Positions 257 through 20,582 of a stretch of 64,000 bases of DNA are shown piece after piece. Positions within the stretch are counted from its first letter, which is position 1. Each line of letters opens with the position of its first letter. The stretch lies in contig CBDHDG010000006.1 of NCBI GenBank assembly GCA_965261595.1, positions 480,001-544,000 of the forward strand, read 5' to 3'. The position numbers and the translations under genes were made by a program. The notes beneath the pieces are model-generated. The model had not been told where the DNA came from, made no database searches, and worked only from the letters and a program-made list of their open reading frames with translations. The DNA comes from a bacterium (GTDB lineage: Bacteria > UBA8248 > JACPRG01 > G963555815).

Positions 257-1366
257 TCAGGCCACACGCACGATGGCGGCCACGGTCCCCCCGCCGGGCG
301 GCCCCTGGTGCTCCGCGCCGCCGGAAACGTAGACCATCGAGTCTCCCACAATCGAGGAGATGACGGCGTTGACGGCGGCCCGCGCGTGGCGGGTGCTGTT
401 GATGTCGGAGTCGTCCAGCATGGTGTGCCGGCGGCCGCGGATTCGGCCGTCCGGGCTGGCCTCGCACTTGGCCAGGATGTTGACGACGCGCTCCCGTTGC
501 TCGGGCGACGGGCGCCAGTCGAAAGAGATTCCGGCGTTCTCCAGCGCGGCCTTCACCGCGTCGCCGTCGATGGCGTCCCGCATGACGCTGTGGCCGATGA
601 CGAGGTCCCCGCCCCACGAGGCGCTGTTGCCCAGCACCATGATCTCGTTGCACAGGAGCTCGATGCCCGAGGAGGTGGAGGCCACGCCCGATGAAAGGGA
701 CCAATCGCGGCCGATCACCTCGTCGCTCAACCGCCCTTCCGAGATTTCGCCCGTCACAAGGCCGACGCCCAGGGCCGAAGCGGCGCGCGAATACCCCATG
801 GATTTGTACGTGTTGTCCGAGCAAACGGTCTTTCCCCGCCGCGCGGCCTCCTCGGCCTGGTCCGTGCTGATCAAGGGGGTTTTGACCTGGACGAAATGGA
901 GGTCTCCGGCGCCCTCGATCCCCGCCTCCCCCATCAGGCGGCGCACCACGGCGGCCGTCTCGCGCACCTGCGCCATGCGGCCCATCTCCTCCGGGAGGAA
1001 ATCGCGCGTATGCCCGGAGGCCATGGCCAGGCGTTTTTCGCCGTTGCCCCCCCCCTCCCCCCCTTCCGGCGACTTGGCGAAAACGGTGAAATGCGGACTC
1101 ATGACCCCTTCGGTTCCGCCCGACATGATCAGGGCGATCCGCTCGCCGGTTTCTTCGCGCGAGATCCCGAGACACCGGCCGAAATAATCCGCCAGAACGA
1201 AATTGCTGAACCCGCGCGCGAAATCGTTGACGCAGCCGTTCCCCTCGGTCTTTCCCATGATGCAGACAACGTCCTCCGCCCCGCACCGGCCGCTGTCGAT
1301 CAGCTCGACGACTCCGCTGATGTCGTCCGGGGACGCCATCGGCACGCGAAAAACCTGTGCCTGCAT
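257..1366 (-). CDS. atzD: Cyanuric acid amidohydrolase (AtzD/barbiturase ring-opening amidohydrolase family)
   Basis: Motifs [55 protein letters not shown]. Confidence 0.9.
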
Positions 1367-1450: not shown

Positions 1451-1852
1451 TCAGATTTCGACGCCGGACACCTTTTCCGTCCGGCCGAAGTCGGCCTGGT
1501 CCGCCTTGGGGACAAAATAGCTGATCTGCGTCGTGGGCTCCGACCCCCGGTTGGCCACGCCGTGAACCGCGCCGCTCTCGACGATGAGGGTCTCCCCCGG
1601 CCGGCACACGGACCGCCGCCCGCCGACGAGGGCGTGCACCTCGCCGTGGATAAAGTGAATCACCTCGGCGGTGTCATGAAAATGGGGCAGGACGGCCGCG
1701 CCGGGCTCTATCTTTTCGAAGAGGATTCGCCACAGCTTCAAGCCCAGCGACCCGGCTTCCTCCCGCGACAGGAGCTCCTTCACATTGACGTTCGGATTCC
1801 CGGGCAGCGGAGTCCACGGCAAATCATCAAACCGCCTGATCATCGATTCCAC
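1451..1852 (-). CDS. Cupin domain protein
   Basis: PHFHDTAEVIHFIHG and GETLIVESGAVHG cupin motifs; GTG start at 1852 chosen from the purine-rich RBS at 1859-1870. Confidence 0.8.
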   Translation of the reverse strand: MESMIRRFDDLPWTPLPGNPNVNVKELLSREEAGSLGLKLWRILFEKIEPGAAVLPHFHDTAEVIHFIHGEVHALVGGRRSVCRPGETLIVESGAVHGVANRGSEPTTQISYFVPKADQADFGRTEKVSGVEI

Positions 1853-2039
1853 GAGGCCACCTTTTCTCCCTTTCCAAGCCGGCCGCGAACCGGAAATCCG
1901 CGGACAGAGCCACCCTTTTCCCGGGATCCCCCCTCTCGTCTCCTTCGAATCCATCCCCGTCGTCATCGAAAGGGCCGAATCAGAATAACAAATCGGACCG
2001 CGGGAAAGAACCCGCCTGGAACCGATTTTCATTCCGTGT

Positions 2040-2252: not shown

Positions 2253-3659
2253 ATGTTCTTCGAACAAGTCGTACGCCTGGAAACCGGCTGCGTCTCCTAT
2301 GTATGCGGTTGTCCCGGGGGCGGTGAGTGCGCGGTGATCGACCCGCTCTGGGACCCGGCGCCGTACGCACGCATCGCCCAATCTCAAGGCGTATCCATCC
2401 GATACGTCATCGACACCCATTCCCACGCAGACCACGTCTCCGGAGCCCGGCGGCTCGCGCGGCTCACGGGCGCCGAGCTTATCCTTCACGAACTGGCCGA
2501 AATCGAGTATCCCGCACAGCGCGTCAAAGACGGCGACACATTCCGGATGGGATCCGTCCGGATGGAGATCCTCCATACGCCGGGCCACCGGCCGGAGCAC
2601 ATCATCGTCGCCATCACCGATCTCAGCCGCACGCCCGAGCCCTGGATGATCTGCACGGGCGATTTCGTTCTCGTCGGCGACATCGCTCGGCCCGATCTGG
2701 CCCAATCCGCCGCGGAGGGCGCGGGGGAGCTGTTCGACAAGGCCCTGCCCCGCGTCGCCGGGCTGCCCGACCACGTCGAGGTCTACCCGGGCCACGTGGG
2801 GGGCTCGACGTGAGGACGCTCGCTCAGCGGCAAGTTTGCCACCACACTCGGATTTGAGCGCCGCCACAACGCGGCCTTCCAAATGAAGAAACGCGACGAC
2901 TTTATCCGCCACATGTCCGAGGGACTGCCCGATCGGCCGGCGAATATCGCGCGGATCGTCGCCAACAACCAGGGAACCCTCCCCCTGACCCTGGAGGCGC
3001 CCGAGGCCCGGCCGGTTCCGCCGTCGGAGGCGTCGCGGTGGATGGAGGAGGACCCGGCGATCCGGATGATCGACATGCGCGAACCCGCCGGCTTCGGCGA
3101 GGCCCACGTCCCCGGGGCGGGAAACCTCCCGATCTCCAGCGCCGAGTTCGAGCAGCGGGCCGGGTGGGTCTTCGACCCCGACACCCCGTTCCTCCTTCTC
3201 GGCGAAAACGACCGCGACGCCCGGCGAGCATCGCACAAGTTGGCCTTTGTGGGACTGGACAGCAACGTTCGGGGATTCATCCCGGGCGGAATGCCGGCTT
3301 GGCGCGACGCGGGACTTCCCTCCGCGTCCCTTGACCAGATCTCCGTCGAGGGGCTTCATGAGCACCTGCGCGGTGACGCCGGGAACGGCTGGAATATCGT
3401 CGACGTGCGAGAGGACGAGGAGTGGACGGAAGGGCACATCGAGGGGGCCCACCACATGAATTTCAAGAAGATGGGCAAAGCGGATCTTGACCTGCCTTTC
3501 CCCCGCGGGGAGACCCTGGCCGTCATCTGCGGCGGGGGGATACGCAGCAGCACCGGCGCAAGCCTTCTTCAGGGACACGGCTACTCCGGCGTGATCAACG
3601 TCGTGGGCGGCATGAGCGCGTGGCGCGCCGCCGACTACGAGGTCGCCACGGAGAATTGA
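2253..3659 (+). CDS. Persulfide dioxygenase (MBL fold)-rhodanese-rhodanese fusion, CstB-like; predicted selenoprotein (TGA 2811-2813 = Sec187), 468 aa
   Basis: ORFs 2253-2813 and 2883-3659 are in the same frame with one stop between them. Reads PGHVGGST-U-GRSLS, matching the family motif PGHGAGSxCG. Also HSHADH, HTPGH, TGD, and C-terminal rhodanese ICGGGIRS. Confidence 0.88.
2814..2843 (+). promoter_or_regulatory. Putative bacterial SECIS element
   Basis: Hairpin GGCAA-GT-TTGCC (2829-2840) with apical GT 21-22 nt after TGA, similar in shape and spacing to the E. coli fdhF SECIS (GCAG-GT-CTGC). Confidence 0.65.
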
Positions 3660-3750
3660 GGACACCGGGACCGGCCCGCGGTTCGAAAGCAATCCATTGA
3701 CGCGAAGAGGGCCAGGGCGGACAGTCCGCCGCGCCCACAGGGAGTGATTT

Positions 3751-5307
3751 GTGGTCACCTATGGATTCGTCATCGACAACCGGAAGTGCATCGGGTGCCA
3801 CGCCTGCACGGTCGCCTGCAAGGCCGAGAACGAGGTCCCCATCGGGGTGAACCGGACTTGGGTCAAGTACATCGAGAAGGGGGAGTTTCCCCTCACCCAG
3901 CGGAAGTTCTCCGTCATGCGGTGCAACCACTGCGCCGACGCCCCCTGTGTGGAAATCTGCCCGGTGACCGCCCTCTACACCCGGCCCGACGGAATCGTGG
4001 ACTTCGACAGCCAGCGGTGCATCGGCTGCAAGGCGTGCATGCAGGCGTGTCCCTACGACGCCATTTACATCGACCCGAACGATCAGACCGCCGCGAAATG
4101 CAATTATTGCTCCCACCGGACGGACGTCGGCCTCGCGCCCCCCTGTGTCACCGTCTGTCCCACGCACGCCATCATCTGCGGCGACCTGGAGGACCCGGGA
4201 AGCGAGATCGCGGGCCTCGTGAACCGCGAGGCGGTCCAGGTCCGAAAACCCGAGAAAGGGACGGACCCGAAGCTTTTCTACATCGAAGGGGACGCCGCTT
4301 CTCTCGACCCTACAGCGGCCTCTCCCGCGGACAGCTATATGTGGAGCCAGGGCGGGGGGGGCGGGGGGGAGACGCTCGAAACGCCCCGCGCCCTTTCCGG
4401 GGGGGGGGCGGCCGGTCCAGACCCCGCAAGCGGACTCGCCGGGCGTCTGGGGACCCTCGCCCGGCGCGTCTACGATGCGCCCCGTGAACAGATGGTCTGG
4501 GGGTGGAAGGTTTCTTTATACATCCTGACGAAGGCCGTCGCGGCCGGGGCGTTCGCCATCCCGCTGTTGGCCTTCGGCCCCGGCCGGCCGCCCGGCCCGA
4601 TGGGGTGGACGGGCGCCCTGCTCGGCCTCATCTTCCTCGGGCTGACCGGTCTCCTTCTCATCCAGGATCTTCGCCGGATGGACCGCTTTCTCTACATTTT
4701 CCTTCGCCCCCAGTGGAAGTCGTGGCTGGTCAAAGGGGGGTTTGTGTTGTTCGGGTTCGGCGGGGTGATCGGCCTGTGGCTCATCAGCGGAATCCTGGGA
4801 GGACGCGCCTTCCAGTCCGCTTTGACCTGGCCGGGGGTCGCCCTGTCTTTTCTGGCGGCCGTATACACGGCCTTCCTGTTCGCGCAGGCCAAAGGGCGGG
4901 ATTTCTGGCAGAGCCCGCTCCTATCGGTCCACATGCTCCTCCACGCGGTTTTGGCCGGGGGGGCGGCGTTGCTCCTGTTCAGCCCGTTCTTTCCGGCGGC
5001 GGCCGGCGACCGGTTGAAGGAGATCCTCCTGGGGGGGCTCGGGGTGAGCTTCCTGGCTTTCATGGGGGAGCTTTTCTTCCCCCACCCGACAAAAGACGCG
5101 CGCGCCGCGGCCCAAATGATCCTGCGCGGTCCCGGCGCGCTCCTGTTTTGGGGAGGCGTCGTGGCCCTGGGTCACGCCGCGGCCGCCGGCCTGCTGCTCT
5201 CGGGAATCGGCGGCCTCGAAGTCCTCAGCGCTCCCTTGATCCTGGGCGGGGTCTTCGCCGCCGCCCACCTCTGGGTGACCATTCCGCAGCGGATCCCGCT
5301 GAGTTGA
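3751..5307 (+). CDS. Fused 4Fe-4S subunit (NrfC/PsrB/DmsB-like) + NrfD/PsrC membrane anchor
   Basis: CIGCHACTVAC, CNHCADAPCVEICP, CIGCKACMQACP, KCNYC...PCVTVCP, then a Gly-rich linker and a multi-TM domain with DLRRMDRF and SWLVKGG motifs. Confidence 0.9.
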   Translation: MVTYGFVIDNRKCIGCHACTVACKAENEVPIGVNRTWVKYIEKGEFPLTQRKFSVMRCNHCADAPCVEICPVTALYTRPDGIVDFDSQRCIGCKACMQACPYDAIYIDPNDQTAAKCNYCSHRTDVGLAPPCVTVCPTHAIICGDLEDPGSEIAGLVNREAVQVRKPEKGTDPKLFYIEGDAASLDPTAASPADSYMWSQGGGGGGETLETPRALSGGGAAGPDPASGLAGRLGTLARRVYDAPREQMVWGWKVSLYILTKAVAAGAFAIPLLAFGPGRPPGPMGWTGALLGLIFLGLTGLLLIQDLRRMDRFLYIFLRPQWKSWLVKGGFVLFGFGGVIGLWLISGILGGRAFQSALTWPGVALSFLAAVYTAFLFAQAKGRDFWQSPLLSVHMLLHAVLAGGAALLLFSPFFPAAAGDRLKEILLGGLGVSFLAFMGELFFPHPTKDARAAAQMILRGPGALLFWGGVVALGHAAAAGLLLSGIGGLEVLSAPLILGGVFAAAHLWVTIPQRIPLS

Positions 5308-5317
5308 GGAGCGCCGA

Positions 5318-8206
5318 ATGAGCCACCAACCGAAACCCGGCTGGATCGAGCGAACGGCGGAGAGCCTCGGATGGATCCAACGGCTGGACCCGCCGCCCGC
5401 TCCCCGGGAAAAACGCCTGGCGCCGGAGGGGAAATTCGAGCAATATCCGCCCACCGACCGCTGGGGGGACTGGGCCGACCCGGTTCCGCCGGGCACCGAA
5501 GCGGACGCCTCGCGTGAGTGCGTCCTCATTCCCACCACCTGCTTCAACTGCGAAGCGGCCTGCGGCCTGCTCGCCTACGTGGACAAGGAGCGCCTGGAGG
5601 TCCGGAAGTTCGAGGGCAATCCCCTCCACCCGGGAAGCCGGGGGCGGAACTGCGCCAAGGGGCCGGCCACGATCAATCAGATTCGGGACCCCGATCGCAT
5701 CCTGCACCCCCTGAAGCGGGTGGGGCCGCGCGGCGGCGGCCGGTGGGAGCGGGTCGGGTGGGACGCGGTCCTGGACGACCTGGCCGCCCGCATCCGCGAA
5801 AGCCTCACCGGGGGAAAACCGGAGGAGGTGATGTATCACGTCGGCAGACCCGGCTACGAGGGATCCGTCGAGCGGGTCCTCAAGGCGTGGGGCATCGACG
5901 GCCACAACAGCCACACTAACGTCTGCTCGGCGGCCGCCCGTCTCGGTTATCACCTCTGGCAGGGGTCCGACCGTCCTTCCCCGGACCATCAACGGTCCCG
6001 CTTCATCCTCCTCATGAGCTCTCACCTGGAGGCGGGCCACTATTTCAACCCGCACGCCCAGCGCATCATCGAGGGCAAGCTGGCCGGCGCCAAACTGGCG
6101 GTCATCGACCCCCGGCTGTCGAATACGGCCGCCCGGGCGGATACCTGGCTCGCGCCTTATCCCGGGACCGAGGGGGCCCTTCTGCTGGCCATGGCCCATG
6201 TCCTCCTGGAAGAAGACCTCTTCGACCGGGCGTACGTGGAGACCTGGGTCAACTGGGAGGAGTATCTGAGGGAGGAGGCGGGCCTGTCCGGGGCCTCCTT
6301 TGATGTCTTTCTCTCAGAAATCAAAGAGGTCTACGCGGCGTACACGCCCGAATTCGCCGAAGCGGAGAGCGGCGTCCCGGCCGCGACGATCCGGAAGTTG
6401 GCCCGGGAGATCGGCCGGGCGGGGTCCGCCTTCGCGACCCACATCTGGCGGGGGGCCGCTTCGGGCCATCTGGGGGGGTGGCAGATCGCCCGCGCCCTTC
6501 ATTTCCTGAGCGTCCTGACCGGCAGCGTAGGGACCCCCGGGGGGACCGCGCCGGCGTCCTGGAACAAAACGAAACCGGCGCCCTTCGACACACCCCCCGC
6601 CGTCAAGTTCTGGAACGAGCTGATCTACCCGAGGGAATACCCCCTCTCGCATTATGAGATGAGCTTCCTCCTCCCCCACTTCCTGAAGGAGGACCGGGGA
6701 AAGCTCAGCGTATACTTCACCCGGGTCTACAACCCCATCTGGACCAACCCCGACGGCTTCACGTGGCTCGAAGTCCTCAAAGACGAGGAGAAGATCGGTC
6801 TGCACGCCGCAATGACGCCGACCTGGAACGAATCGGCCCTGTTCGCCGACTACGTCCTGCCCATGGGGCTCGCGGGCGAGCGTCACGACGTCCAGAGCCA
6901 GGAAACCCATTCGGGGATCTGGGTCTCGTTCCGCCAACCCGTCCTGCGGGTGGCGATGGAGCGGATGGGCAAACCCGTCCAGTGGACCTACGAGGCCAAC
7001 CCGGGGGAGGTGTGGGAAGAGGATGAGTTCTGGATCGAGCTCTCCTGGCGGATCGATCCGGATGGGGATCTCGGCATCCGGCGTCATTTCGAATCCCCCT
7101 ACCGGCCGGGGGAGAAGGTCACGGTCGAGGAATACTACCGCTGGATGTTCGAGAACAGCGTGCCGGGACTCCCGGAGAAGGTGGCCGAAGAGGGCCTCAC
7201 CCCCATCGAGTACATGAAAAAGTACGGGTCCTTCGAGATCCAAAAGGACATTTTCCAAAAGTACACCCGGCGGCTTCCGGCCGAAGAGATGGAGGGCGCG
7301 TCCATCGATCCCCGGACCCGCGTGGCTTCCAGAGACGGCCGGCCGATCGGCGTGGAGATCGCCGGGCGGGTCCTCGAGGGATTTCCGACCCCCTCGCGAA
7401 AACTGGAGTTCTATTCCTCCACGCTGAAGGATTGGGGCTGGCCCGAGCACGCCCTGCCCGGATACGTCTTCAGCCACATCCGTGAAGAAGACATGGGCCC
7501 GGGGGAGCTCATCCTCCTGCCGACCTTCCGCCTGCCCACGCTCATCCACACCCGGTCGGCCAACGCCAAGTGGCTGCTTGAGATCTCCCACCGGAACCCG
7601 GTCTGGATGCATCCGAAGGACTGCGGCCCGTTCGGGCTGAAGACGGGGGACCTGGTCAAGGTCCACACCGAGATCGGGTATTTCGTCAATCGCGTCTGGG
7701 TCACCGAGTCCATCCGGCCGGGGGTGATCGCCTGCTCCCACCACGCGGGCCGGTGGCGGCTGGACGAAAACGAGGGGGGAGGGGGGCGGATGGGCGCCGC
7801 CCTGGTCCGCCTGGAAGAACGGGAGAAGGGCCAATGGCTCCTCCGCCAGATTCACGGCATCAGGCCCTATGAAAGCGAGGACCCGGACACCGCCCGGATC
7901 TGGTGGCAGGACCCCGGCGTCCATCAGAACGCGGCCTTTCCCGTTCACCCGGACCCCGTGAGCGGGATGCACTGCTGGCATCAGAAGGTCCGCATCGAGA
8001 AGGCCGGCCCCGATGACCGGTACGGAGACGTCTTCGCGGACACCCGGAAGTCCTTTGAGATTTACCGCGAGTGGCTTCAGAAGACCCGTCCGGCGCCCGG
8101 CCCCGGCGGATTGAGACGTCCCCTCTGGCTGAATCGTCCCATTCCCTGCGAGCGGGACGCCTACCAATTGACCCCGGAACCGCCGGTGGACGGCCCCCAG
8201 GCGTGA
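5318..8206 (+). CDS. Molybdopterin (bis-PGD) oxidoreductase catalytic subunit, Psr/Phs/Sre/Soe-like, no Tat signal
   Basis: CFNCEAAC...NCAKG 4Fe-4S motif, SHTNVCS (Cys Mo ligand), ADYVLP, HTRS, C-terminal dinucleotide-binding domain; no RRxFLK at the N-terminus. Confidence 0.9.
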   Translation: MSHQPKPGWIERTAESLGWIQRLDPPPAPREKRLAPEGKFEQYPPTDRWGDWADPVPPGTEADASRECVLIPTTCFNCEAACGLLAYVDKERLEVRKFEGNPLHPGSRGRNCAKGPATINQIRDPDRILHPLKRVGPRGGGRWERVGWDAVLDDLAARIRESLTGGKPEEVMYHVGRPGYEGSVERVLKAWGIDGHNSHTNVCSAAARLGYHLWQGSDRPSPDHQRSRFILLMSSHLEAGHYFNPHAQRIIEGKLAGAKLAVIDPRLSNTAARADTWLAPYPGTEGALLLAMAHVLLEEDLFDRAYVETWVNWEEYLREEAGLSGASFDVFLSEIKEVYAAYTPEFAEAESGVPAATIRKLAREIGRAGSAFATHIWRGAASGHLGGWQIARALHFLSVLTGSVGTPGGTAPASWNKTKPAPFDTPPAVKFWNELIYPREYPLSHYEMSFLLPHFLKEDRGKLSVYFTRVYNPIWTNPDGFTWLEVLKDEEKIGLHAAMTPTWNESALFADYVLPMGLAGERHDVQSQETHSGIWVSFRQPVLRVAMERMGKPVQWTYEANPGEVWEEDEFWIELSWRIDPDGDLGIRRHFESPYRPGEKVTVEEYYRWMFENSVPGLPEKVAEEGLTPIEYMKKYGSFEIQKDIFQKYTRRLPAEEMEGASIDPRTRVASRDGRPIGVEIAGRVLEGFPTPSRKLEFYSSTLKDWGWPEHALPGYVFSHIREEDMGPGELILLPTFRLPTLIHTRSANAKWLLEISHRNPVWMHPKDCGPFGLKTGDLVKVHTEIGYFVNRVWVTESIRPGVIACSHHAGRWRLDENEGGGGRMGAALVRLEEREKGQWLLRQIHGIRPYESEDPDTARIWWQDPGVHQNAAFPVHPDPVSGMHCWHQKVRIEKAGPDDRYGDVFADTRKSFEIYREWLQKTRPAPGPGGLRRPLWLNRPIPCERDAYQLTPEPPVDGPQA

Positions 8207-8300
8207 GCGTCTTCGCCGGCCCGCCATGGCCCGGATGGAAGGCCCGCCCGCCCCGCCCCGCCCGACCAATCGCGGCGGGAACGGTTTGCGCGCAAGCTGA

Positions 8301-9116
8301 ATGGAAATGCTCTGGATCTATCTCCTGATCGGTCTCATTACGGGCTTTTGCTCCGGTCTGATCGGCGTGGGCGGGGGGTTTATTCTGATCCCGCTCCTCC
8401 TGCTCGCCCGCGTCCCCATGGAAGTGGCCGTCAGCACCAGCCTGGTTTTCGTCCTGTTCAGCGCGGCCTCCGGGGCGTTGCGACACGGGTTTCAAGGGAC
8501 GGTGGACCGGCGTCTGGCCGGGTCGGTCGCCCCGGTTTCGGTCCTGACCGCCTTCGCCGGCTCCCTGTTGACCGTCCGGTTCCCCACCTCCGTGCTTCAG
8601 TCGCTCCTGGGCATCTGCGTCCTGGCCGGTCTTTATCTCCTGAATCGCAAGGCCCGCCTCCAGGTGGAGCTCACCGCGACGGACCTGCCGGGCCGCTGGA
8701 CCTACGACCGGACGGTCGAGTGGGGGGAGGAATCCATTCACTATCGCCTGGACTTGAAGAAGGCGGCGGGGGTCGGCGGCGTGGTGGGTTTTCTGGCCGG
8801 CCTGTTGGGCGTCGGCGGGGGGTTCTTGATAATCCCCGCCTTCGTCGGCCTGATGGGCATCCCCCTGCGCGTCGCCATCGGAACCTCCCTCCTCACCATC
8901 CTGGCGTCCGCCTTCGTGGGGACTGTGATGCACTGGGGACAAGGAAGCATGGACCTCACCGTGGTCTGGACGACGATCCTGACCGGGATGATCGGGGCGC
9001 AGCTCGGAGCCCTCTGCGTGCCGAAAATGCAAGAGGCGGGGATGAAAATCCTGATGAACGTCCTGCTGGGACTCTCGGCGGCTTATCTATTCGTTCTGGC
9101 GGGAATCGGACTTTGA
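8301..9116 (+). CDS. Sulfite exporter TauE/SafE family
   Basis: Two GxxSGLxGVGGG repeats, AIGTSL, multiple TM helices. Confidence 0.9.
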   Translation: MEMLWIYLLIGLITGFCSGLIGVGGGFILIPLLLLARVPMEVAVSTSLVFVLFSAASGALRHGFQGTVDRRLAGSVAPVSVLTAFAGSLLTVRFPTSVLQSLLGICVLAGLYLLNRKARLQVELTATDLPGRWTYDRTVEWGEESIHYRLDLKKAAGVGGVVGFLAGLLGVGGGFLIIPAFVGLMGIPLRVAIGTSLLTILASAFVGTVMHWGQGSMDLTVVWTTILTGMIGAQLGALCVPKMQEAGMKILMNVLLGLSAAYLFVLAGIGL

Positions 9117-9200
9117 GTCCGCACGGTCTGGGAAAAAATACTGGACAGAAAAACGGCGACCCCCGAGCGGGGCCGCCGGCCACATCGGAATCCCTCCGTC

Positions 9201-9440
9201 TTACAGCGTGGCGTGCGTTCCGTCACACAGGGGTTTGTTCCCCGACTGCTTGCAGCCGCAGAATCCATACGTTTCACCCGCCTTCACTGAGTGGGTCATC
9301 GGCCGGAACGGGGTTTCCTTGTGGGAGCCGTCACAGAAGGGCTGGTTGCTGCTATGCCCACAAGCGCACCAATGAACCTCACCGTCTTTCTCGGCGGTGT
9401 GCTTGTAAGATCCTTTTTGAGCGATATTCGGCTTTTCCAT
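9201..9440 (-). CDS. CDGSH iron-sulfur domain protein (two motifs)
   Basis: WCACGHSSNQPFCDGSH and FCGCKQSGNKPLCDGTH. Confidence 0.92.
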   Translation of the reverse strand: MEKPNIAQKGSYKHTAEKDGEVHWCACGHSSNQPFCDGSHKETPFRPMTHSVKAGETYGFCGCKQSGNKPLCDGTHATL

Positions 9441-9710: not shown

Positions 9711-10373
9711 TCAGGCGTGAACCGCGTCCGCCTTCTTTTCTCCGGCCTCCTGCTTCTCTTCAGCCAGGATTTCCCGGATAACGCCCTCCCGAACTTCCGG
9801 CTTCGTCCAGGTGCCCTTGTAGACGATGTTCCCCTCCCGGTCGGCGATGTACGCCATGTTGGACAGCCAACCGAAGGCCTCGTAAATCTTCTGGTCCATA
9901 CCGTCCACCAGAACCGTTACCTTCTTGATACCCTTTTGCTCGACCAGCTCCTTGGCGTAGCCCATTTTCTGCTCATACGAAGCGTGAGCTTCGTACTTGC
10001 CGAAGATCCCTTCATTCGCGTGCGGCGCGCGGACGTAGATGTTGAAAATCTCCAAATCGTCCCCGTACCTTTCGGCCAGATTTTCCATGTGCGGCACTTG
10101 CCGCCGGTACGGCGGTCACGTGATAGCGCCGAACTCGAAGAGCTGGAGCTTCTTTCCGATCAGGTCCACCGTATTGACGCGGCGGCCGTCCGTGGTCTCG
10201 AGCTGGACCGTCGGGATCTTCGAGCCGAGGGCCGCCGCGTCCTGGAATTTTGCGTACACGGCGCTCACCTTCTCGTTGAATTTTATCTTGACGAGCTTCC
10301 ACCAGTTCAGGAACAGGAACGAGTAGAACTTGCTCGGCGGGTTTCTGCCGAATTCACCTCTGGTCTGAATCAT
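9711..10373 (-). CDS. Iodothyronine deiodinase-like thioredoxin-fold protein; predicted selenoprotein (TGA 10118-10116), 220 aa
   Basis: ORFs 10116-10427 and 9711-10097 are in frame. Reads FEFGAIT-U-PPY (cf. deiodinase FGSxTUPxF), then IYVRAPH. GGAGG RBS lies 6 nt before ATG 10373. Confidence 0.88.
10088..10115 (-). promoter_or_regulatory. Putative bacterial SECIS element
   Basis: Hairpin GCGGC-AAGT-GCCGC (10104-10091) with GT 19-20 nt after TGA; shares GCGGCAAGT with the 2814 element. Confidence 0.65.
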
Positions 10374-10736
10374 CCAATCCTCCCTGTCGGCCTCGGGATT
10401 TGCATCTCCTCCGGACACTCGCCACACAAACGGCCGGCCTCAGCGAGAAACCCTGCGGCGATCACGCGAATCACCCCATTTTCCATTTTACCCCCTAAGA
10501 TTGTAAATAAGCGAGGGCGCGTAATATTCCACCCGATTGCTCCATTCGCCCGGCCGACCCGGTCCGGGAGACCCCGGCCAACCGTCCCGCCGGTTGAAGG
10601 AAAAAACCCTTTCTGTTAACATCCAGGCCGACCCTGAAGCGAAGCGCCATTCCCCACCGAGAACCTTATCCTTGACGGGTCGCCTCACAACAGGAGGGGA
10701 TGGGCAACGGCGCGCGGGAACGCGGAGATTGGAACG

Positions 10737-15825: not shown

Positions 15826-16023
15826 GTGTCTCGTAAAAGGTTTTACATTTCGTGACCCGAATGGTCCCGCTCCGGCCGGGCAAGGAGTCAACCGACCCAA
15901 ACGCCCGGCCTGCCGAAAGGTGTAAACCCGGTGTTTTCAAAGGGAATTATATAGATAAGTGGCATTTCCCCCTTAACATCCGTGCCACTTTCCTATAGGA
16001 TTATCTGTAGGAGGTCAAGGGAG

Positions 16024-17011
16024 ATGGCACACAAAGCACCTGGAAAAGCCCACCGCGTAGGACTCGGATTCGTCCAGTTCACCGAGATGTTCCCCGACAA
16101 CGAGACGGCGGAGAAGTGGATTGCCGAAGTGCGGTGGCCCGATGGCCCGCGTTGCCCAGTGTGCGACTCGGACAAGGTGCAGCACCCGACCGGTCACAAG
16201 ACCATGCCGTACCGGTGCCAAGTCAAGGGATGCCGGCAGAAGTTCAGTGTGAAGACCGGCACCGTCATGGAATCGTCGAAGGTCACCTATCGGGAGTGGG
16301 CCATTGCCGTGTACCTGTTCTGTACGAACCTCAAGGGCGTGTCGTCCATGAAGCTGCACCGGGACCTGAACCGGACTCAAAAGACGAGCTGGCATCTTGC
16401 CCACCGGCTCCGCGAGGCATGGGTGCATGACGAAGGGTTTGCGTTCACCGGACCGGTTGAAGTAGACGAGACCTACATGGGTGGCAAGGAACGCAACAAG
16501 CATGGCGTCAAGAAGATCAACAAGGGTCGTGGGCCTGTTGGCAAGAAGGCGGTTATCGGCATGAAGGACCGGGACACCAACTGGGTCACCGCCATGACGA
16601 TAGACAGGACGGACGCGCCCACGTTGCAGGGTTTCGTGCTTGGGGCAGGTGGCACCCGACGCGAAGGTGTACACCGATGACCACGGCGGGTATTACGGCC
16701 TGCCGAACCACGAGACGGTCAAGCACTCCGTGGGCGAGTACGTGGACGGACAGGCCCACACGAACGGTATCGAGTCCTTTTGGTCCATGCTCAAGAGGGG
16801 CTACCACGGGGTGTACCACCGCATGAGTCCCGAGCACCTGGACAGGTACGTGACGGAGTTCTCGGGACGCCACAATCTGCGGAATGAGGATACGGTTGCC
16901 CAGATGGTCGCCGTGTTCCGGGGCACGGTCGGACGGCGGTTGAAGTACGATGACCTGATTGCCCCCAAGCTCGCTCCGGTGCTGACCGCGCCGGGGAGCG
17001 ACGTGTTCTAG
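16024..17011 (+). pseudogene. IS1595 transposase, +1 frameshift near 16642-16645
   Basis: Zn ribbon CPVC/C..GC, VEVDETY in one frame; VYTD, HTNGIESFWS, YVTEF in the next. An extra G in GGGG separates them (may be a sequencing error). Confidence 0.88.
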
Positions 17012-19757: not shown

Positions 19758-20582
19758 ATGCGCGGCTACAAAAACCCGGACCTTCTCTGGACCCCAGACC
19801 GGCTGCGGCGGACCCTGGACGGCGGCCCCCCCCTCCCTCCTCTGATTCTGGACATCCGGACGACGCAGGATTACGTGGCCGGGCACATCCCGGGCGCGGT
19901 CCACCTGGACCTCTTCGGCCTGTCCGTCCGGCACACCGGGCCGGAATCCCTGGACTCGTTCTTCTGGATGATGGAGGGCCTGTTCGGCAACCGGGGCGTC
20001 GATCACGGCAAGACCGTCGTCGTCTACGACGAACGGACGGGCACGAGAGCGGCGCGGGCCTTCTGGTTCCTGGAGTATTTCGGGCATGAAGACGTCCACG
20101 TCCTGGACGGCGGATACGACGCCTGGGAGATGGCCGCGCACCCCGTGAGCCGCGACCCGGTGATACCCGAGGGGGCGAGCTTCAAGGCCCGGCCGGTCGC
20201 GGACCGCCTCGCCACGGCGGAGACGATCCGGAAGGGACTCGACGACGGCGGATGCGTGGTCCTGGACACCCGCACCGACGGCGAGTATCACGGAACCGAG
20301 CTCCGCGCCAAGCGGGGCGGGGCGATCCCCGGCGCCGTCCACATCGAGTGGAAGAACAACGTCGAAGACGGCGCGTACAAGAACGCGGAGGACCTCGCCG
20401 CCCTCTACGCGCCGGCCGGCGTGACGCCGGACAAGGACGTATCGGCCTACTGCCAAGGCGGGTACCGCTCGGCTCACGCCTACCTCGCCCTCAGGCTGTT
20501 GGGGTACGAAAAGGTCCGGAACTACATATCGTCCTGGGCCGAATGGGGAGAGCGCGAGGAGCTGCCGATCGAGACGCCGTAG
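19758..20582 (+). CDS. Tandem-domain sulfurtransferase (rhodanese, SseA/CysA-like)
   Basis: GHIPGA, LDGG, active loop YCQGGYRS, SWAEW. Confidence 0.9.
   Translation: MRGYKNPDLLWTPDRLRRTLDGGPPLPPLILDIRTTQDYVAGHIPGAVHLDLFGLSVRHTGPESLDSFFWMMEGLFGNRGVDHGKTVVVYDERTGTRAARAFWFLEYFGHEDVHVLDGGYDAWEMAAHPVSRDPVIPEGASFKARPVADRLATAETIRKGLDDGGCVVLDTRTDGEYHGTELRAKRGGAIPGAVHIEWKNNVEDGAYKNAEDLAALYAPAGVTPDKDVSAYCQGGYRSAHAYLALRLLGYEKVRNYISSWAEWGEREELPIETP

Follow-up and report, generated by a model that had tools for sequence, protein, structure and literature searches.

In the persulfide dioxygenase CstB of Staphylococcus aureus, the residue pair C201-G202 lies on a mobile loop, acts as a glutathione mimic at the Fe(II) site and becomes self-S-sulfonated; C201 is described as handing the sulfonate to persulfidated C408, which gives thiosulfate without release of sulfite (2026 preprint, PMC12934615). 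Sulfite oxidation is the reaction of a second described system, SoeABC, which comprises a predicted cytoplasm-facing molybdenum bis(pyranopterin guanine dinucleotide) (Mo-bisPGD) subunit, a four-cluster iron-sulfur (FeS) subunit and a haem-less quinone anchor (PMC8076601), and in green sulfur bacteria a cytoplasm-facing 'PSRLC3' has been called an alternative sulfite-oxidising system (PMC6338057). Here we describe a cluster of four genes in which proteins of these kinds occur side by side, at the start of a 64,000-nucleotide (nt) stretch of bacterial DNA (hereafter the window: positions 480,001 to 544,000 of contig CBDHDG010000006.1, assembly GCA_965261595.1, GTDB lineage UBA8248; JACPRG01; G963555815). 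Gene 1 is very probably a true selenoprotein, a CstB-type enzyme with selenocysteine (Sec) at the position of Cys201, and genes 2 and 3 encode a Mo complex of the PSRLC3 type, predicted to face the cytoplasm. The features of the cluster are the following.

2253..3659, plus strand: gene 1, Sec-containing CstB-type persulfide dioxygenase-rhodanese, 468 residues (Pfam and phmmer)
2811..2813, plus strand: codon of U187, UGA very probably read as selenocysteine, motif GGST-U-GRS (alignment, codon conservation)
2827..2842, plus strand: hairpin resembling a selenocysteine insertion sequence (SECIS), G(C/U)GGCA-AGUU-UGCCAC, starting 13 nt after the UGA
3528..3530, plus strand: codon of the rhodanese catalytic Cys426, loop CGGGIRS, aligned with CstB C408 (3R2U chain residue 432)
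3751..5307, plus strand: gene 2, fused NrfC-NrfD, one open frame
5318..8206, plus strand: gene 3, Mo-bisPGD catalytic subunit of the PSRLC3 / 'FqoA' family without a twin-arginine translocation (Tat) signal, 962 residues
5924-5926, plus strand: codon of Cys203 within gene 3, Mo ligand
8301..9116, plus strand: gene 4, predicted TauE/SafE-family anion exporter, 271 residues, 8 predicted helices

Pfam finds in gene 1 a metallo-beta-lactamase (MBL) fold (Lactamase_B, E 1.8e-13) and two rhodanese stretches, arranged as a persulfide dioxygenase domain, a middle rhodanese-like domain whose loop (LLLGENDRD) contains no Cys, and a C-terminal rhodanese with Cys426. Full-length matches were obtained by phmmer with PDB 3TP9 (E 2.8e-74) and with 3R2U of S. 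aureus (E 3.5e-61), and the metal motifs HSHADH at 56, HTPGH at 108, TGDF at 135 and YPGH at 178 align with both. S. aureus CstB has the same three-domain order, aligned over residues 1-453, with corresponding metal motifs, Cys-Gly loop position and rhodanese cysteine: residue 187 of gene 1 pairs with 3R2U chain residue 225, which is CstB Cys201 (24-residue offset), and Cys426 corresponds to Cys408 (chain residue 432). The two enzymes differ in that CstB has C201-G202 where gene 1 has U187-G188. The surroundings differ as well, with no CstR, CstA or SQR gene in the four-gene cluster described here; the cst operon of S. aureus also carries a tauE gene, and the literature mentions TauE alongside the dioxygenase.

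The case for Sec rests on the conservation of a single in-frame TGA (2811-2813, residue 187). At this position, 19 of the 22 tblastn matches in related loci have the Cys of a conserved HGAGSxC motif (HGAGS(A/S)CGK in 16 of the 19), while of the remaining three one is Cys-less, one leaves the site uncovered and the last is rhodanese-only. Gene 1 is matched at E<=1e-30 by 7 of the 51 genomes of the phylum; six of these (G000, G001, G003, G036, G039 and G041) carry one TGA at the identical codon, and the seventh (G007) holds a 39%-identical Cys form. Among 401 sampled Acidobacteriota there were 12 matches at E<=1e-100, every one with one TGA and one of them also with a TAG. In 13 of 14 sequences an open, conserved frame continues for 276-291 codons past the TGA; the remaining sequence breaks off after 152. 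The next in-frame ATG follows only 24-34 codons after the TGA, and over the 23 codons in between the protein sequence is maintained (GRSLSGKFATTLGFERRH in this phylum) and can be aligned with CstB. One RNA-library contig (2781-3037) runs across this site and has the TGA intact.

In public records the family appears as two separate genes. Proteins shorter than 257 residues gave 1212 matches to gene 1 at E<=1e-20; among the 120 listed, 109 are 180-200 residues long, and 108 of these 109 end in PGHxxxST, as does one listed relative of 241 residues, just before the TGA. Separate public proteins of 245-252 residues begin at the next Met after the TGA. The short halves are named "MBL fold metallo-hydrolase" or "hydroxyacylglutathione hydrolase", and the rhodanese halves are filed separately. 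Some of these proteins lie on contigs of up to 3.7 Mb, and their sources include Gemmatimonadota, Acidobacteriota, Krumholzibacteriia and Tectomicrobia.

The genome has selA, selB, tRNA-Sec and selD, all above curated cut-offs, and selB was found in 5 of 5 other carriers of the Sec dioxygenase tested. Since selB occurs in 48 of the 51 genomes of the phylum, its presence is no discriminating test. The selD match itself (G000:C5:89297-90265, minus strand) contains one in-frame TGA, so that SelD is probably a selenoprotein here. Downstream of the UGA, a 6-bp hairpin, G(U/C)GGCA-AG(U/G)U-UGCCAC, is kept in 14 of 14 sequences from the two phyla; 77 of the 78 cells of its alignment are paired, a single pair has gone from G-C to G-U and double compensatory changes are absent, a pattern of conservation and not of covariation. 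RNAalifold found one compensatory pair, in an outer helix only, and Rfam gave no match in the window.

Identity between the Sec forms and the Cys forms found does not exceed 40%. In a quick maximum-likelihood tree, which omits open reading frames of the dioxygenase cluster shorter than 400 residues, locus L106 and the pieces of the G001 gene, the 13 Sec forms make up one branch (SH-aLRT 99), separate from the Cys forms of Bacteroidota, Ktedonobacterales, KSB1 and Rhodococcus, several of the Cys rows being long branches. A full-text literature search for a selenoprotein with MBL and rhodanese domains returned SelTryp of Kinetoplastida only. SelTryp is described as having the same domain set, an MBL fold and two rhodanese domains, with Sec in a C-terminal CxxU tail and a eukaryotic SECIS in the 3' untranslated region (PMC1557815), whereas the Sec of gene 1 belongs to the dioxygenase domain, in whose active-site loop it lies, and a bacterial-type hairpin follows it in frame. 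A 2026 review of prokaryotic selenoproteins (PMC13188914) lists several rhodanese-only forms in its main text, which makes no mention of lactamase, MBL, PF00753, hydrolase, dioxygenase, persulfide, glyoxalase or ETHE1. Nor is there mention of lactamase, PF00753, persulfide or rhodanese in the BSepDB paper, or of lactamase, MBL, PF00753, dioxygenase or glyoxalase in the deep-Sep paper and four supplements to it; no NCBIfam model was reached by gene 1. Within the texts searched, namely the main text of the review, the BSepDB paper and the deep-Sep paper with four supplements, the Sec-CstB family is uncatalogued. What is new here is Sec where CstB has C201; the family concerned is common in metagenomes and is systematically mis-called as two genes. 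If the assignment is true, one selenoprotein family would be added to the bacterial list and many public records would be corrected. Selenium would then sit at the very residue that serves CstB as built-in glutathione mimic and sulfonate carrier, and the Sec and Cys forms would offer a ready-made test of mechanism.

The pairing of NrfCD with a Mo subunit in genes 2 and 3 is a textbook one. The NrfC-type part of gene 2 (approximately residues 1-190) contains 16 Cys in four cluster groups and is joined by a Gly-rich linker to the NrfD-type part (residues 256-504, 8 predicted helices). Gene 3 has the FS0 cysteines C75/78/82/112, and its Cys203 aligns with Sec140 of E. coli FdhH. No twin-arginine motif or Tat signal was found on the product of gene 2 or of gene 3, and the loops of the anchor carry 12 K+R on the N-terminal side against 4 on the other (positive-inside count); from sequence, the Mo complex is predicted to face the cytoplasm. 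Formate dehydrogenase was considered and rejected as the identity of gene 3: the catalytic His of FdhH is replaced by Ser204, which follows Cys203 in every aligned family member, and the FdhH stretch with the active-site Arg is a gap in all of them (we take these two FdhH residues to be His141 and Arg333). Nor does gene 3 conform to a Psr/Phs reductase, the PhsA model reaching 186 bits against a cut-off of 694 and the Tat motif being absent. The YnfE and YnfF models gave weak matches to gene 3, far below their cut-offs.

Much of this bears out an earlier description of the locus made from the DNA letters alone (the original prediction). It had placed four co-oriented genes at these coordinates, and they are present, their order recurring in G003 and G001. 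Its reading of Sec in the dioxygenase-rhodanese is very probably correct, given the alignment with Cys201 and the codon conserved in two phyla, and the Mo enzyme with a Cys ligand and no Tat signal, as well as the orientation of the complex towards the cytoplasm, agree with the alignment of Cys203, the missing signals and the charge count given above.

Genes 2 and 3 belong to the PSRLC3/'FqoABC' family, which is widespread and has already been noticed in print. For PSRLC3 as a sulfite-oxidising system, PMC6338057 cites Frigaard and Dahl (2008). A genome note on a green sulfur bacterium counts '2 genes encoding PSRLC3' (PMC5473276). Calisto and Pereira (2021) tentatively assign the CT0494 complex of C. 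tepidum (CT0494-0496) as a formate:quinone oxidoreductase, 'FqoABC', which they report from Actinobacteria, Chlorobi, Crenarchaeota, Chloroflexi and Deltaproteobacteria and group apart from SoeC, whose taxonomic range differs (PMC8076601). A large bSreA/SoeA lineage with highly similar members has been described by Wells et al. (PMC10100899). In IMG, members of the family carry only a generic COG name, and the names given by the ESM Atlas are likewise generic.

Relatives of gene 3 at 57-77% identity number in the thousands and come from many phyla. A pattern scan of species genomes gave at least 744 encoding stretches, and within the phylum 41 genomes out of 51 carry the Mo gene. Gene 3 is 62.5% identical to the protein of Thermomicrobium roseum, 60% to that of Chlorobium sp. 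N1, 58.6% to that of plasmid pRHL3 of Rhodococcus jostii RHA1 and 51-54% to those of Haloarchaea; Flavilitoribacter nigricans is another named carrier. The two genes are TRD_RS12035/12030 in T. roseum and RHA1_RS43840/43835 in R. jostii RHA1. For comparison of gene neighbourhoods, 83 loci were assembled (80 related loci, two plasmid records and the window), which are not independent, roughly half being from Bacteroidota. The NrfD and Mo genes are adjacent on the same strand in 66 of 73 loci. NrfC and NrfD form one frame in 67 of the 68 loci that hold both parts, which makes the fusion a hallmark of the Mo family. The fusion noted in the original prediction is thus real and not special to this locus, and its two-chain complex, no compact novelty, belongs to a known, widespread and uncharacterised family. 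Six loci with full 8-kb flanks (L028, L034, L040, L051, L057 and L071) have a Mo gene with no NrfC or NrfD detectable nearby, and in L039 the order is reversed, with Mo first and NrfCD after it.

The Chlorobium sp. N1 locus (L097), equated with PSRLC3 on the ground that it is the only close Mo match of its genome and not as a named reference, has a fused NrfCD upstream of the Mo gene and TauE downstream, and Tat signals are absent from both this complex and ours. The complex described here differs in being joined to a selenocysteine dioxygenase, in a non-phototroph. With SoeABC, known from Allochromatium vinosum and Aquifex aeolicus, it is predicted to share the three kinds of component named at the outset, and the reaction proposed is the same. 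Soe genes run in the order soeA-soeB-soeC and specify three separate subunits, whereas here B and C are one protein and the two genes are ordered BC-A.

Gene 3 shares 31-41% identity with its closest full-length relatives from outside the family, most of which have RRxFLK signals. The PhsA thiosulfate-reductase model is the best one for 19 of 24 outside representatives (E<=1e-90), all of them below its cut-off, and the best solved relatives are Thermus Psr/Phs, a polysulfide/thiosulfate reductase and the closest, and ArrA. With most of its nearest outside relatives bearing Tat signals, the Mo family is an inward-facing branch among periplasmic sulfur and arsenic enzymes. Two proteins, P0131 (1115 residues, 48% identical) and P0175 (1123 residues), have a twin-arginine signal together with the HTN(I/V)CS(A/S) Mo-ligand motif of the family, so that a periplasmic sister of the inward-facing family exists.

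A tblastn search of plasmids for SoeA returned only family members and other Mo enzymes. The loci of Azoarcus KH32C and Sulfurovum mangrovi were discarded as SoeA references, being Tat/TorD-type B-C-A clusters, and the matches in Pseudohalocynthiibacter, Allorhizobium and Caballeronia were discarded as unrelated soluble Mo enzymes. On the Sulfurovum mangrovi plasmid (L099, 6001-8950), an unannotated, 39%-identical Mo relative was matched in two pieces and is flanked by nrfD, TorD and FeS genes; a pseudogene is one possible reading, a Sec-containing gene that annotation overlooked another.

The neighbours of the Mo genes in the 83 loci include a CstB-type dioxygenase (24 loci), a SulP sulfate permease (22), YeeE/YedE-type transporter halves (8), an SQR-like flavoprotein with DUF1641 (5), TauE (3) and DsrE with TusA (3), and most Acidobacteriota loci have no tested sulfur gene near the Mo genes. 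In the quick tree, the dioxygenases found near the Mo complex fall into at least four separate lineages, which points to a functional tie rather than one inherited cluster. A CsoR-type regulator lies directly upstream of the Mo genes in T. roseum, and the pair on R. jostii pRHL3 is surrounded by DsrE, TusA, three MBL proteins, ArsR-type regulators and a thioredoxin. The DsrE and TusA genes abut the Mo complex in Rhodococcus and come after it in Chlorobium. A full-text search, judged from its listing, found no literature on the pairing of the dioxygenase with this Mo family.

Within the cluster, the gaps between the four genes are 91, 10 and 94 nt, with no terminator-like site in any of the three. 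G003, of another genus, has the dioxygenase, NrfCD, Mo and TauE genes in the same order (61-77% protein identity), and so does G001, of the same genus (190 contigs), where the NrfCD, Mo and TauE genes are intact; the 10-nt gap between NrfCD and Mo, together with an order kept in another genus, fits an operon. Gene 4 matches PF01925 over residues 7-263 with 167.3 bits against a gathering cut-off of 32.6 (E 6e-49), and TauE follows the Mo gene in Chlorobium sp. N1, G001 and G003 also. Each of the four genes has matching contigs (0-3 differences) in data from four RNA libraries, and such contigs bridge the gap between genes 1 and 2 (3580-3828) and that between genes 2 and 3 (5219-5369); the four libraries give no cover of 3305-3545, 4269-4509, 7161-7401 and 9089-9300. 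One such contig, a strain variant, is without 14 nt at 8243 in the spacer between Mo and TauE.

We propose that the cluster is a lineage-specific operon for the oxidative disposal of sulfane sulfur, a reading which, for the pathway as a whole, we favour by a modest measure. Sulfane sulfur from low-molecular-weight thiol persulfides would be taken onto Sec187 (Cys201 in CstB), where the Fe(II) site and O2 would oxidise the bound sulfur; the resulting group would move towards persulfidated Cys426 and be given off either there, as thiosulfate, or in the form of sulfite. Whether it is set free at once or formed again from thiosulfate by the rhodanese, sulfite would then be oxidised to sulfate by the cytoplasm-facing PSRLC3-type Mo enzyme, its electrons passing from Mo and FS0 through the four [4Fe-4S] clusters of NrfC to quinone in the fused NrfD, and TauE would export a sulfur oxyanion. 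In this scheme the persulfide chemistry of gene 1 is drawn from homology with CstB, the substrate and direction of the Mo enzyme are suggested by gene context in other genomes, and a coupling between the two enzymes is what we infer from both. That the Mo enzyme oxidises sulfite we put at even chances. Rather doubtful, and offered tentatively, is the more specific idea that Sec replaces the self-sulfonating Cys of CstB by way of a Se-S intermediate (a selenenyl-persulfide, then a seleno-sulfonate) in a widespread uncatalogued family, with sulfite handed on to a Soe-like quinone-reducing Mo enzyme. On that idea the two enzymes would together constitute a complete cytoplasmic, respiration-linked route from persulfide to sulfate in a heterotroph.

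The overall interpretation given in the original prediction is partly supported. Its placing of the Mo subunit in sulfur company holds, the nearest outside relatives being Psr/Phs-like sulfur enzymes, and the link it drew between persulfide dioxygenase and Mo enzyme gains from the dioxygenases found beside the Mo family in several unrelated lineages. In its persulfide-to-sulfite pathway the dioxygenase is of the CstB type, which makes the sulfite step uncertain. The conservation of the neighbourhood, which it had suggested should be checked, extends to the order in G000, G001 and G003 and not to ten other Sec-dioxygenase loci.

Several observations weigh against the proposed pathway. CstB releases thiosulfate, not sulfite (PMC12934615), and with no free sulfite from CstB the sulfite link between dioxygenase and Mo enzyme is an assumption. 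The names given to the Mo family, sulfite oxidiser (PMC6338057) and formate:quinone oxidoreductase (PMC8076601), are only tentative. Conservation of the four-gene order is limited to one family of genomes (G000, G001 and G003), and all ten of the other Sec-dioxygenase loci (nine from Acidobacteriota and that of G039) are without Mo, NrfCD and TauE genes, and without any other tested sulfur gene, within approximately 5-10 kb on each side; around the Acidobacteriota genes nothing consistent or sulfur-related was seen, only a thioesterase, GluRS and DUF547. Conversely, the dioxygenase is far less common in the phylum than the Mo complex (7 against 41 of 51 genomes). The dioxygenase gene of G001, the closest relative (G001:C1:99271-100705, minus strand), was matched in four pieces in different frames, from either gene decay or assembly error. 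The RNA-library contigs are low-depth assemblies in which DNA carry-over or related strains are possible, so that they cannot show one transcript, and none of them bridges the junction between Mo and TauE. The genome also encodes one further candidate for a sulfite oxidase fold, Oxidored_molyb. As for Sec itself, the folding energy of the hairpin is not better than that of shuffled sequences (z -0.06 to -2.3), and codon identity over the 12 codons after the TGA is unexceptional, being reached by 21 of 221 windows.

The main rival to sulfite oxidation, which we consider unlikely, keeps the operon and gives the Mo enzyme another substrate, namely thiosulfate or sulfane sulfur carried on a thiol, TusA or DsrE, to be oxidised or, as in Psr/Phs, reduced at the expense of quinol. 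It would take up the thiosulfate that is described as the only product of CstB-type enzymes (PMC12934615), and it is in line with the preference of 19 of the 24 outside relatives for the PhsA model, below cut-off as these scores are, and with the Thermus polysulfide/thiosulfate reductase as closest solved structure. The DsrE and TusA genes by the Mo complex in Rhodococcus and Chlorobium and the YeeE/YedE-type transporters in 8 of 83 loci point the same way. However, the PhsA-like relatives are Tat-bearing and periplasmic, unlike the Mo family here, and the SulP sulfate permease in 22 of the 83 loci fits sulfate as the end product. Quinol-driven reduction of thiosulfate in the cytoplasm is, moreover, energetically unfavourable.

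Sulfite oxidation by an operon must also be weighed against the idea that the genes are neighbours only, the Mo complex being a general respiratory enzyme (for example for formate) and the dioxygenase and TauE a cst-like detoxification pair. The unequal spread of the Mo gene and the dioxygenase in the phylum would be expected in that case, as would the many loci, among them most of those in Acidobacteriota, with no tested sulfur gene nearby; the CT0494 complex of C. tepidum has been assigned as a formate:quinone oxidoreductase (PMC8076601), and some NCBI records name family members formate dehydrogenase. Against this stand the invariant Ser in place of the FdhH His and the gap at the Arg stretch in all family members, the dioxygenases of at least four lineages beside the Mo complex, the sulfur-responsive types of regulator that flank it in two cultured organisms, and the 10-nt gap with an order kept in another genus, and we regard the idea as decidedly improbable. 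The pairing with the dioxygenase and the missing formate dehydrogenase residues favour a sulfur role over the name "formate:quinone oxidoreductase", which matters for at least 744 species genomes.

A cluster that handles selenium, by selenopersulfide oxidation or by reduction of a selenium oxyanion, is very improbable. Two selenoprotein genes do lie within 8 kb (that of U187 and the deiodinase-like 9711-10427), selenate or selenite is the substrate reduced by certain Mo enzymes of the wider superfamily, and there are weak matches to the YnfE/YnfF models. Yet those scores are far below cut-offs, Sec use is phylum-wide (selB in 48 of 51 genomes), the Sec dioxygenase usually has no Mo enzyme alongside, and the Mo family is found mostly with Cys-type dioxygenases and sulfur transporters. 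Hardly credible, finally, is a TGA that is a true stop, in which case the locus would encode a truncated MBL protein of 186 residues plus a rhodanese protein of its own, or would be a pseudogene: public annotations call exactly those two pieces, the G001 copy looks frame-shifted and the hairpin energy is not significant, but a stop here would cost the protein its catalytic Cys position together with the remainder of the dioxygenase domain, an open and conserved frame extends far past a TGA fixed at one codon across two phyla, the first in-frame ATG follows only 24-34 codons after it, and an RNA-library contig covers the TGA unchanged.

The four-gene cluster is bordered by the following features.

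257-1366, minus strand: AtzD/TrzD-type gene, upstream of gene 1 and divergent from it
1451-2032, minus strand: cupin gene, upstream of gene 1 and divergent from it
9154..9178, no strand assigned: GC-rich hairpin between the convergent TauE and CDGSH genes, 10 pairs of which 9 are G-C, with a T-run on the minus strand; likely a two-way terminator

No inverted repeat was found in the promoter region 2000-2260, a promoter scan gave nothing upstream of gene 1, and a tRNA search found none in the window. Between TauE and the deiodinase-like gene lies 9201-9440 (minus strand), whose 79-residue product carries a pair of CDGSH-type iron-sulfur motifs (Pfam zf-CDGSH, E 2.3e-19). The deiodinase-like gene, 9711-10427 (minus strand, convergent to TauE), is a second selenoprotein candidate, with a TGA at 10116-10118; its product has a thioredoxin fold, the motif FGAIT-U-PPY and a match to Pfam T4_deiodinase (E 9.7e-13), and T4_deiodinase (PF00837) is listed among the bacterial selenoproteins in the 2026 review (PMC13188914). 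Both genes keep their place beside the cluster in G001 and G003. The remaining window to 40 kb is catabolic, with amidohydrolases, peptidases and UbiD-type and Rieske-type genes. Among the catabolic genes 7-11 kb downstream of the cluster are an IS1595-type transposase fragment (15982-16677, plus strand) and a two-domain rhodanese of 274 residues (19758-20579, plus strand).

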